A DNA stretch of 64,000 bases from assembly GCA_947626115.1 (NCBI GenBank), contig CANQQX010000001.1:10000-73999 (forward strand). Reading direction: 5' to 3'. This stretch comes from an uncultured Bacilli bacterium (GTDB taxonomy: Bacteria > Bacillota_I > Bacilli_A > RF39 > UBA660). Positions 5,150 to 11,149 of the stretch are shown here, piece by piece (position 1 is the stretch's first letter; every line of letters starts with the position of its first letter). Position numbers and translations under genes: made by a program. A model generated the notes under the pieces. It did not search any database. It was not told where the DNA came from and worked only from the letters and a program-made list of their open reading frames with translations.

Positions 5150-5204
5150 ATATAAATTAATTGATGATTGATTATTAACAAAAATGTTAGTATAATTATT
5201 TTAA

Positions 5205-5326
5205 CATCTTATAAAGAGCGATGGAGGGACTAGCCCTAGGAAGTCGCACCAACCTATTTAGTTAGGTGGTAATGCTAGATCTATAAGATAACTTTATACT
5301 CAAGGTTATCTTGGGTGTTTTTTTAT
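5205..5326 (+). promoter_or_regulatory. SAM-I (S-box) riboswitch with an intrinsic terminator in the expression platform
   Basis: tcttataaagagcgatggagggactagccctaggaagtcgcaccaacc...ggtggtaatgctagatctataagat matches the S-box consensus (CTTATCAAGAG..GGAGGGAC.GGCCC..GAA..C.GCAACC...GGTGCTAA...AGATAAG). It is followed by the hairpin aagataac/ggttatctt plus T7, which overlaps the 3' strand of P1. Confidence 0.85.
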
Positions 5327-5402
5327 GAGATGCTAAAGAAAGGAGTATCTATGAAAAAATTATTTTAGGTGGGTTTACTTTTAATTAGGAAGGAGTTTTA
5401 TT

Positions 5403-6185
5403 ATGATAGAAAAAGTAAATCCAAGTCATCCTGATAAGATAGCTGATAGAATAGCTGGGGCAATAGTTGATTTAGCTTATACTAAATGTGAAAATCCAAA
5501 AGTAGCAGTAGAGATTTTAATTGGGCATGGTGTATGCCATATAATAATGGAAACATCAGAAAAATTTACAAAAGATGAAGTAGAAAAAATATTAAAGAGA
5601 ATTGCGGGTGATATCAAATTAGATTTAAAAGTTTATAAACAAGATGCACATCTAGCCTTAAATCAAGAAAATGATATTAGATGTGGTGATAATGGTATTT
5701 TTAAAGGTGTACCTTTAACTAAAGAAGAAAAGGAGTTATCAAAAATAGCAAGAGAGATATATCAAGAATATCCTTATGATGGTAAATATATTTTAGATCA
5801 AGACAAATTAGTCATATGTCAAAGTAATGCTTTAAAAGAAGATTTAATTAAAAAATATCCTGAAGCTATTATTAATCCATTAGGTAATTGGACAGGTGGC
5901 ATAAATGTTGATAGTGGTGCTACCAATAGAAAATTAGGTTCTGATATGGGACATAGTGTTACTGGTGGAGGACTACACGGTAAAGATTTATCGAAAGCTG
6001 ATGTTTCTCTAAATATTTATGCTTTTAAAAAAGCTCAAAAATTACAAAAAGAAGTAAATATTAGTTGTGCTATTGGTGATACTTTTGTAGATGGTAAGTC
6101 ATATAAGGAAATAGTTGAAGAAACTAGACAATATATTAAAGAAGTTGGTGGCTTTGAAAAATTTGCTGAATGGGGATTATTTTAA
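5403..6185 (+). CDS. metK: Compact S-adenosylmethionine synthetase (MetK)-like protein
   Basis: N-terminal SHPDKIADRIAGAIVD matches the MetK GHPDKIADQISDAVLD motif. CGDNGIF aligns to GAGDQG, and INPLGNW...GGGLHGKDLSKADVS aligns to INPTGRF...GGGAFSGKDPTKVDRS, all in colinear order. The protein is only 260 aa against about 385 aa for MetK. The RBS is aggaaggag. Confidence 0.5.
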   Translation: MIEKVNPSHPDKIADRIAGAIVDLAYTKCENPKVAVEILIGHGVCHIIMETSEKFTKDEVEKILKRIAGDIKLDLKVYKQDAHLALNQENDIRCGDNGIFKGVPLTKEEKELSKIAREIYQEYPYDGKYILDQDKLVICQSNALKEDLIKKYPEAIINPLGNWTGGINVDSGATNRKLGSDMGHSVTGGGLHGKDLSKADVSLNIYAFKKAQKLQKEVNISCAIGDTFVDGKSYKEIVEETRQYIKEVGGFEKFAEWGLF

Positions 6186-10213: not shown

Positions 10214-11149
10214 ATGGGGTCTAAAACATTTAAAACATTAGATGAGCAAATTGAATTATTAAAAAGTAAGGGACTCGTAATTGATGATATAGATTATGCG
10301 AAAGAGATTCTTTTAAGAGAAAATTATTTCTTTTTAAGTGGCTATAGACATTTATTTCTAAAAGATGATGGTTCGCGTAAATTTATACCAAATACCAATT
10401 TTAGAGAATTATATGGTCTATTTTATTTTGATAGACAATTAAGAAACATTTTATTTAAAAATATTTTAATTGTGGAAAACAACCTTAAAAGTATTCTATC
10501 TTATGTAATGAGTAAAAATCATGGCTTTAAAGAACAGCACTATTTAAATGCGAAGAATTTTACGCAAGATGCTAGTAAATCAAGGCAAATAAATGATTTA
10601 CTAAGGAAGATGAAAAGGCAAATTAATGTTAATGGTAAACAACATACGGCAACTAGCCATTATATATCTAATTATGGTTATATTCCTTTATGGGTAGTTG
10701 TTAAAGTTTTATCATTTGGTATTGTGGGTGAACTTTATTCCGTACTGCAAAAAGAAGATCAAAATGAAATTGCAGATATTTATGATGTATCTGTTCGTAA
10801 TCTAATTGATTATTTTCCAATACTAGCAAATTATCGTAATTTATGTGCGCATGAAGATTTATGTTTCAATAATACTACACATAAAAATATTGAAAATACT
10901 AAATATCATGATTTATTAAATATCCCCAAAAATGAAGAAGATGAATATATTTATGGTTTAAATGATTTATTTGCTATTATAATAATTATGAAGCAAATCT
11001 TACAAAGAGATGATTTTACTTTAATGATGAATGAAATAAGTTATGAACTTGACGTACTTGATGGTAGATTAAAAACAATTGAAATAAGTAAAGTATTAAA
11101 GGAAATGGGATTTCCAGAAAATTATAAAGAAATTGTGAGGGTGAATTAA
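10214..11149 (+). CDS. Abi-like abortive-infection protein (Abi_2 / AbiD-AbiF family)
   Basis: The N-terminus TLDEQIELLKSKGLVIDD...ENYFFLSGYRHLF is the characteristic opening of Abi_2 proteins. 311 aa. Confidence 0.75.
   Translation: MGSKTFKTLDEQIELLKSKGLVIDDIDYAKEILLRENYFFLSGYRHLFLKDDGSRKFIPNTNFRELYGLFYFDRQLRNILFKNILIVENNLKSILSYVMSKNHGFKEQHYLNAKNFTQDASKSRQINDLLRKMKRQINVNGKQHTATSHYISNYGYIPLWVVVKVLSFGIVGELYSVLQKEDQNEIADIYDVSVRNLIDYFPILANYRNLCAHEDLCFNNTTHKNIENTKYHDLLNIPKNEEDEYIYGLNDLFAIIIIMKQILQRDDFTLMMNEISYELDVLDGRLKTIEISKVLKEMGFPENYKEIVRVN

Follow-up and report, generated by a model that had tools for sequence, protein, structure and literature searches.

A compact MetK homologue of phage type behind a P4-less SAM-I leader in low-GC gut Bacilli: a putative stripped-down methionine adenosyltransferase in the metK slot

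Introduction

Few enzymes are as conserved as MetK, the S-adenosylmethionine (SAM) synthetase or methionine adenosyltransferase (MAT), and its size hardly varies. It converts ATP and L-methionine to SAM, PPi and Pi, with active sites at a dimer interface. In Firmicutes, an S-box leader usually stands before the metK gene (e.g., Rodionov et al. 2004). Here, we analyse a stretch of 64,000 nucleotides from an uncultured Bacilli bacterium (assembly GCA_947626115.1, contig CANQQX010000001.1, positions 10,000 to 73,999 of the forward strand; hereinafter "the window"), in which a SAM-I riboswitch leader precedes a gene for a MetK homologue of only 260 amino acids (aa). An earlier note, made from the sequence of the window alone, had described this pair as a "textbook" S-box controlling an atypically small MetK. 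The observation itself is confirmed, and the earlier reading as a whole is supported and essentially right, with corrections to the form of the aptamer and to the distribution of the deletions.

Results

The P4-less SAM-I leader

The features of the leader and of the gene behind it are collected in Table 1. RF00162 (SAM-I) was the sole Rfam family matched in the window (cmscan, E 9.9e-13), and its score of 64.6 bits is well above the gathering score of 44.4. The SAM-I assignment of the earlier note is therefore retained, whereas its "textbook" four-helix form is not: RF00162 model positions 81-97, which make up helix P4, are deleted, so that the aptamer is only 84 nt long and has no four-way junction P1-P4. 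Helix P4 is also missing from nearly all related leaders, 27 of which (including one from a contig with an identical protein) score 47.8-67.9 bits on RF00162.

Table 1. Features of the riboswitch leader and of the 260-aa gene, numbered from the first nucleotide of the window
Feature	Position	Strand	Details and basis
Candidate promoter (TTGATT, 17-nt spacer, TATAAT)	5168..5196	+	Consensus scan only, 10/12 matches
SAM-I aptamer, P4-less	5206..5289	+	P1 5206-5213/5282-5289, P2 with internal loop, P3, pseudoknot
Aptamer pseudoknot	CUAG(5230-5233)/CUAG(5275-5278)	+	
Predicted antiterminator helix, 12 bp	5284..5313	+	5284-5295/5302-5313; ViennaRNA fold with the P1 3' strand free, -10.5 kcal/mol
Predicted intrinsic terminator	5296..5324	+	Stem-loop 5296-5318, then seven T (5318-5324); fold with P1 formed, -9.1 kcal/mol
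Post-terminator heptamer ATGAGAT	5325..5331	+	Complements the P1 5' strand AUCUUAU
Shine-Dalgarno (5340-5345) and five-codon mini-ORF (open reading frame) MKKLF-stop (5351-5368)	5340..5368	+	
Shine-Dalgarno GGAAGGAG of the 260-aa gene	5388..5395	+	Read straight from the sequence
Compact MetK homologue, putative MAT, 260 aa	5403..6185	+	

Helices P1, P2 and P3 and the pseudoknot are strongly supported by covariation. When the aptamer structure was projected onto 23 leaders, 95.5% of the cells were paired, compared with at most 47% in slid controls. Across the same leaders, 13 pairs were altered on both sides, which was matched by none of the 500 shuffles; these double-sided changes include the pseudoknot (CUAG/CUAG versus CAAG/CUUG).

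The antiterminator and terminator helices behind the aptamer are mutually exclusive. The antiterminator has the segment AAGAU in common with the 3' strand of P1 and overlaps both the loop and the 3' arm of the terminator, and related leaders show the same arrangement. A terminator scan of the region found one site versus 0.2 expected, and a hairpin followed by a T-run is present in all 23 leaders (in 20 of them by folding, in the remaining three by eye). This architecture is that of a predicted transcriptional OFF switch, to which SAM is expected to bind, in agreement with the earlier proposal of a terminator-type platform and a SAM-repressed gene. A SAM "ON" switch was considered as well, since the longest downstream helix takes up the 3' strand of P1; it was dropped because the terminator stem-loop and its T-run compete with that helix.

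In the mechanism that we propose, binding of SAM to the P4-less aptamer would allow P1 to form, the formed P1 would block the antiterminator, and the terminator would fold and halt transcription 5' of the gene. When SAM is scarce, the P1 3' strand would be free to pair downstream, and the gene would be read. The candidate promoter would put the transcript start right before the aptamer. The post-terminator heptamer, which is complementary to P1 at 7/7 positions in 14 of the 23 leaders and covaries with P1 in loci L015 and L039, could keep the aptamer open in the read-through transcripts.

Natural P4-less SAM-I variants are known and functional, with a reduced affinity for SAM (PMC12714719). 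The window leader resembles them in its covarying P1, P2, P3 and pseudoknot and in its terminator-type OFF platform. The P4-less group described in that work belongs to Actinomycetota, whereas the present variant belongs to low-GC Bacilli, and it differs from the known variants in that the Bacilli leader is unusually uniform, expression platform included, and is reused before at least four gene types.

Sequence, predicted fold and residues of the 260-aa protein

The identity of the 260-aa protein to E. coli MetK (reference sequence identical to PDB 7ll3_A) is about 25%. In Pfam, S-AdoMet_synt_N was matched at 4.5e-11, above its cut-off, and S-AdoMet_synt_C weakly and below threshold (E 0.019, 15.4 bits versus a cut-off of 25), and the full set of three Pfam domains was not recovered. 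A sequence search of PDB matched MAT chains in two colinear stretches, and a profile of 59 family members aligned with E. coli MetK at 99.2% probability (hhalign), colinearly over E. coli residues 7-342, which bears out the colinearity recognised in the earlier note. The catalytic motifs named there are kept as well.

An AlphaFold (AF2) model built on the family alignment reached a pLDDT of 96.3 and a pTM of 0.93. It preserves the succession of strands and helices that the three MetK domains should have, and the top 50 Foldseek matches in PDB are all MAT/MetK structures (E ~1e-19, query-normalised TM 0.68-0.78). The protein is thus predicted to have the three-domain MAT fold, and the three beta-alpha-beta-beta-alpha-beta domains, about which the earlier note had asked, are retained in the model.

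Residue invariance was judged over 23 riboswitch-linked and about 50 phage-linked copies. Residues H9, D11, K12, E37, E50, Q80, D96, W163, D170, R176, K177, K194, K198 and D200 are invariant; their E. coli counterparts are, in the same order, H14, D16, K17, E42, E55, Q98, D118, F230, D238, R244, K245, K265, K269 and D271. K17 apart, these E. coli residues bind Mg2+, K+, phosphates, methionine and adenine. Judging by the alignment, 13 catalytic or ligand-binding residues are either identical or conservatively replaced (F to W), and the loss of catalytic residues, which the earlier note had allowed for, is excluded. For E. coli K165, which two aligners place differently, K128 is taken as the counterpart by a motif argument, the D126-G127-K128 motif being nearly invariant in the family. 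The substitutions relative to E. coli MetK include F230 to W and GDQG to GDNG.

With 260 versus about 384 aa, the protein is shorter than E. coli MetK by the roughly 125 residues initially estimated. The compaction, however, is not limited to the central domain and the C-terminus, as was believed: it comes from five or six deletions, which affect all three domains, and from the absence of the tail past the GHFG-equivalent. Most likely, loops at the surface, portions of two domains and the C-terminal tail were lost. Compared with canonical MetK (TIGR01034; PF00438, PF02772, PF02773; E. coli MetK, PDB 7ll3/1fug), the 260-aa protein is colinear, with the same predicted three-domain fold and the same catalytic, metal- and substrate-binding residues; the differences include its length, the internal deletions and the lack of the C-terminal tail, besides the low identity and the substitutions given above.

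A frameshift, an assembly artefact and a split gene are ruled out, as the earlier note had supposed for the frameshift: tblastn with E. coli MetK gives one in-frame match and nothing else in the window, and hundreds of homologues have 259-263 aa. The dN/dS between homologues ranges from 0.09 to 0.22, and the gene is under purifying selection. In the literature, we found no characterised "minimal" or "smallest" MAT and no biochemically tested phage MetK.

The same leader in other loci and the metK slot

The aptamer core was matched at least 120 times in metagenome contigs, and 80 of these loci were retrieved. Behind the leader stands a gene of the 260-aa type in 27 of them, a MetK of ~340 aa ("MKYYSNEIVFRGHPDKVCDQISD...") in 15, an unannotated 85-aa Cys-rich ORF in 16, and another or a cut-off gene in 22. 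None of the 80 loci contains both MetK types.

The ~340-aa MetK belongs to related low-GC Bacilli (L172-L174, L181, L182, L191 and others). It passes TIGR01034 (331.8 bits versus a cut-off of 309.4) and is identical by 37-41% to E. coli MetK, by ~44% to Streptococcus phage MetKs and by 28-30% to the 260-aa type, with which it has the GDNG motif and the C-terminal end point in common. Its leaders are homologous to the window leader end to end and 83-88% identical to it over 127 nt, a range also seen when 260-aa loci are compared with one another. The leaders of both MetK types have P1, the antiterminator and the terminator with the ATGAGAT behind it in common.

The downstream neighbours are shared as well. 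A sirtuin-like gene lies immediately downstream in L174 and L182 (340-aa) and in L238 (260-aa), with 61% identity, and prfB lies downstream of L181 (340-aa) and of L019, L243 and L198 (260-aa), with 45-51% identity. The Abi_2 gene and the gene next to it are common to L181 and the window (62% and 44% identity). In the simplest interpretation, an ancestral leader and position were kept and the ORF behind them was exchanged. The 260-aa copy would then have been acquired by taking the place, in situ, of the resident ORF, behind a metK leader that belongs to the lineage itself. Since the 260-aa enzyme stands behind this leader where relatives carry the ~340-aa MetK, it is most likely the housekeeping SAM synthetase of the cell.

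The five-codon mini-ORF upstream of the gene is retained only in the window and in L001, L002 and L003 (MKKLF, MKKYL or MKKQF, then stop). Because it resembles the Shine-Dalgarno sequence and the first codons of the 340-aa metK in L172 and L178, it may be a vestige of the start of the displaced metK, that is, a scar of gene replacement. Some leaders show a clean ORF swap, and the window subclade keeps this possible scar.

One can also suggest that a normal metK lies elsewhere in the genome and that the compact enzyme supplements it at low SAM. Hosts of the prophage copies, such as Enterococcus, Anaerostipes, Parvimonas and others, would be expected to have a canonical metK too, so that coexistence of both MetKs would be possible. 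A second metK could likewise lie beyond the window and the loci covered by our searches, and the leader is used before several different genes. Nevertheless, no locus has both MetK types, both occupy the same slot, with the same leader and the same prfB or sirtuin gene downstream, and no further MetK match was found in the window (tblastn) or in 1.9 Mb of loci. We consider such an auxiliary role unlikely.

As the leader also precedes other genes, it may be a reusable cassette and not strictly a metK leader. An 80-98-aa family (MRTQYIVQESDK.KRKEFYDYI..FPFVVDFK..FWVCESITCCACAAQ), which includes the 85-aa Cys-rich ORF, stands alone behind the P4-less SAM-I leader in 16 of the 80 loci (L189, at 153-449 nt after the aptamer core, L211, L226, L228, L184, L190, L207, L212, L225, L240 and others). 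Pfam gave no match for it; from its sequence, it looks like a SAM-repressed small Cys-rich protein. In L197 and L232, the leader is followed by a 250-aa protein that weakly matches N-formylglutamate amidohydrolase (FGase), an unusual member of a SAM regulon. L205 encodes a chimeric MetK, which over its first ~115 residues does not differ from the 340-aa type of L172 and from there on is an ordinary MetK of Firmicute type (57% identity to E. coli). It reflects either gene recombination or a chimeric assembly.

The phage-borne family

Relatives of 259-263 aa with 73-100% identity number in the hundreds in the protein database. The family is tight, since only 204 clusters matched at E <= 1e-30 among 1.84 billion representative proteins. 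In a survey of one genome per species, at least 460 loci were found and 80 were fetched with flanks of ~10 kb. A phage module surrounds the gene in 50 of these 80 species-representative loci, in hosts such as Peptostreptococcus, Parvimonas, Anaerococcus, Enterococcus, Atopobacter, Lachnospiraceae and others. The usual order of the module is SNF2 helicase, DUF1492/sigma-like, HNH nuclease, TerS, the gene, ParB-N6/N4 DNA methylase and C5 DNA methylase; an alternative order is methylase, the gene, TerL (large terminase) and portal. The protein matches phrog_1569 of PHROGs (function not annotated) at E 6.7e-68 over profile positions 4-337 of 346. The 260-aa type is encoded by 26 GenBank phages, at 60-70% identity and annotated mostly as hypothetical, and by at least 582 IMG/VR contigs. 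All three deep-branching relatives that were tested come from phage-like or methylase contexts.

These phage copies presumably top up the methyl donor for phage DNA methylation. A similar role was proposed for a 353-aa three-domain MetK, which occurs in the same module of phi1207.3 and would feed the phage C5-methylase (PMC4260502), and 59% of the Ca. Heliusvirales phages of the gut carry K00789 (PMC11283538). The window protein shares phrog_1569 with these phage MetKs of 335-353 aa (Streptococcus phi1207.3 orf29, Javan prophages, K00789 in Ca. Heliusvirales), and the family shares their module (SNF2 helicase, HNH, ParB-DNA methylase, C5-methylase; PMC4260502). The larger phage MetKs match all three Pfam domains strongly (PMC4260502), whereas the window protein is ~90 residues shorter, only distantly related to them, chromosomal and riboswitch-controlled.

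The compact form has been seen before. The MetK of S. agalactiae prophage 12/111phiA was described as having a "135-amino-acid truncation" relative to E. coli MetK that leaves the catalytic domain unaffected (PMC8223999). This description matches the compact form, and Javan-type Streptococcus prophages carry 260-aa proteins with 60-70% identity. The S. agalactiae work addressed aggregation and biofilm phenotypes, with no enzymology: deletion of the gene altered aggregation and the glycocalyx, not viability (PMC8223999). In contrast to the window gene, that of 12/111phiA is the cargo of a prophage whose host has another MetK, and a riboswitch was not reported for it. The earlier note was right about the small size of the window protein, which is no singular oddity and belongs to a large, mostly phage-borne family.

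Some members depart from the common form. Three distant relatives of 258-267 aa (P0172, P0213 and P0270) have lost HPDK and other catalytic residues and keep the C-terminal GGFEKLAEWGL; they are probably non-catalytic derivatives. Six members of 346-415 aa (P0180, P0188, P0189, P0207, P0208 and P0219) carry large lineage-specific insertions at differing points of the scaffold, which do not restore a canonical central domain. Locus L084 (the contig of P0130) is phage-like, with RecA, peptide deformylase, dCMP deaminase and many small ORFs; a gene called there does not give the database protein when translated with table 11, and the phage may be recoded.

The window protein, too, might be a MetK-derived protein with a changed job, acting on another nucleotide or amino-acid substrate or serving as a binding or decoy protein for phage counter-defence. 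The low identity to E. coli MetK, the two substitutions (W for F230, GDNG for GDQG), the shortened loops at the active-site entrance, the loss of HPDK in the three distant members and the deletion phenotype of the S. agalactiae prophage gene are all consistent with this. We regard it as quite improbable, for three reasons: the metal-, phosphate- and methionine-binding residues are all invariant in the riboswitch-linked and phage-linked copies; an enzyme that produces SAM would be expected to have just such a SAM-repressed leader, shared with a bona fide metK; and GDNG is also present in the 340-aa MetK that passes TIGR01034.

Chromosomal copies and the context of the window

The other 30 loci of the survey lie outside the phage module. 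A complete SAM-I aptamer stands directly upstream of the gene in 22 of them and a cut one in one more; of the remaining loci, one has an IS605/TnpB-like end in place of the aptamer, two have no upstream sequence and four are probably mobile contexts. The riboswitch was absent from all 12 phage-module loci scanned, and the aptamer core pattern gave no match in the entire viral contig collection. The hosts of the riboswitch are all low-GC gut metagenome-assembled genomes (MAGs) classified as "Bacilli", "Erysipelotrichaceae" or "Mollicutes"; the window itself has a G+C content of 25%. The riboswitch thus accompanies the chromosomal copies only, in low-GC gut Bacilli.

At positions 1-290 of L024, the 3' end of an IS605/TnpB-like element has taken the place of the aptamer upstream of the compact metK, and just the final portion of the leader is left. 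In L219, a TnpB-like ORF of 375 aa follows directly after the riboswitch.

In the window, the gene is surrounded by housekeeping genes: whiA, truA, rplM, rpsI and a His phosphatase gene upstream, MerR and UDG genes downstream. No phage hallmark genes flank it, and the reference phage proteins are also missing. L001 and L002 have the gene at the same chromosomal position after rplM-rpsI (their upstream ORF sizes match the rplM and rpsI of the window), and MerR and UDG recur downstream in the contigs with an identical protein. An Abi_2 (abortive-infection-like) protein is encoded at 10214-11149, 4 kb downstream, and its 62% identical copy stands at the matching position in L181.

This context bears on the possibility that the window gene is left-over prophage cargo outside the host physiology. 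The family is mostly phage-borne, and the Abi_2 gene is close by. Such a status is nonetheless hardly credible given the housekeeping neighbours and the lack of any flanking phage hallmark gene, the conserved position in L001 and L002 and the recurrence of MerR and UDG, the purifying selection, and a SAM riboswitch that never occurs in viral contigs.

Discussion

The presented data make it probable, in our opinion, that the 260-aa protein is a working, stripped-down MAT: a putative enzyme of phage type, which sits in the resident metK slot under SAM feedback. We infer enzyme activity and SAM binding, as well as sole-MAT status and the phage-to-host transfer.

Several observations weigh against this interpretation. 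The central Pfam domain, S-AdoMet_synt_M, was undetected in the protein, and the NCBIfam metK equivalog TIGR01034 was missed widely (52.6 bits versus a cut-off of 309.4). The aligners disagree on the counterpart of E. coli K165. In these lineages, the same leader also precedes the 85-aa ORF family and the FGase-like gene, and P4-less SAM-I aptamers are reported as weaker SAM binders (PMC12714719). A second metK may be present elsewhere in the genome, since the searches covered the window and the fetched loci. Finally, 100 bootstraps give no supported split between the riboswitch-linked and phage-linked copies.

The last point concerns the direction of the transfer. A plain neighbour-joining (NJ) tree suggested a grouping of the riboswitch-linked copies apart from the phage-linked ones, which was unsupported in the bootstraps, and we make no claim of monophyly or of multiple origins. 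Since the bootstrapped tree does not separate the two sets, the direction rests on distribution, not on phylogeny. We favour a phage-to-host direction on two grounds: the compact type shares 66-75% identity with phage copies from distant hosts and less than 30% with the MetK that it would have replaced, and phage contexts dominate.

The reverse order of events has to be considered too: the compact enzyme could have arisen as the metK of reduced-genome Bacilli, been captured by phages and then spread to the phages of other Firmicutes. Phage capture of host genes is common, the backbone of the tree is unresolved, and in the plain NJ tree the phage copies from Bacilli MAGs (L006, L009-L011, L060) lie near the riboswitch-linked ones; the GDNG motif and the C-terminal end point common to the 340-aa and 260-aa types would also fit. 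We find this origin somewhat unlikely, as the compact type has just 28-30% identity to the 340-aa MetK of the same locus compared with its much higher identity to the phage copies, as the three deep-branching relatives are in phage-like or methylase contexts, and as phage contexts far outnumber chromosomal ones.

If the favoured transfer from phage to host is extended to its full consequence, the 260-aa enzyme would be the sole SAM synthetase of the lineage and the smallest natural housekeeping MAT, encoded by a phage auxiliary gene that precisely replaced an essential and nearly universal gene of the host behind its own riboswitch, perhaps repeatedly. This stronger version we put forward tentatively, as quite possible and clearly less certain than the presence of a working MAT in the metK slot. 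The apparent novelty is that, in a clade of gut Bacilli, such a mini-enzyme takes the place of the normal metK and is placed under the SAM riboswitch of the clade itself.

The uniform P4-less SAM-I leader that serves several genes represents a compact natural riboswitch for study. If the proposed function is true, a natural 260-residue version with every catalytic residue would define a minimal MAT scaffold, useful for enzymology and for engineering the synthesis of SAM analogues. In many gut virome surveys, phage metK is tallied among the "auxiliary metabolic genes" without a functional test; a cellular copy under SAM feedback in the metK slot would be indirect, independent evidence that the compact phage form makes SAM. 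If true, the locus would also exemplify clearly the in-situ displacement of an essential host gene by one from a phage.

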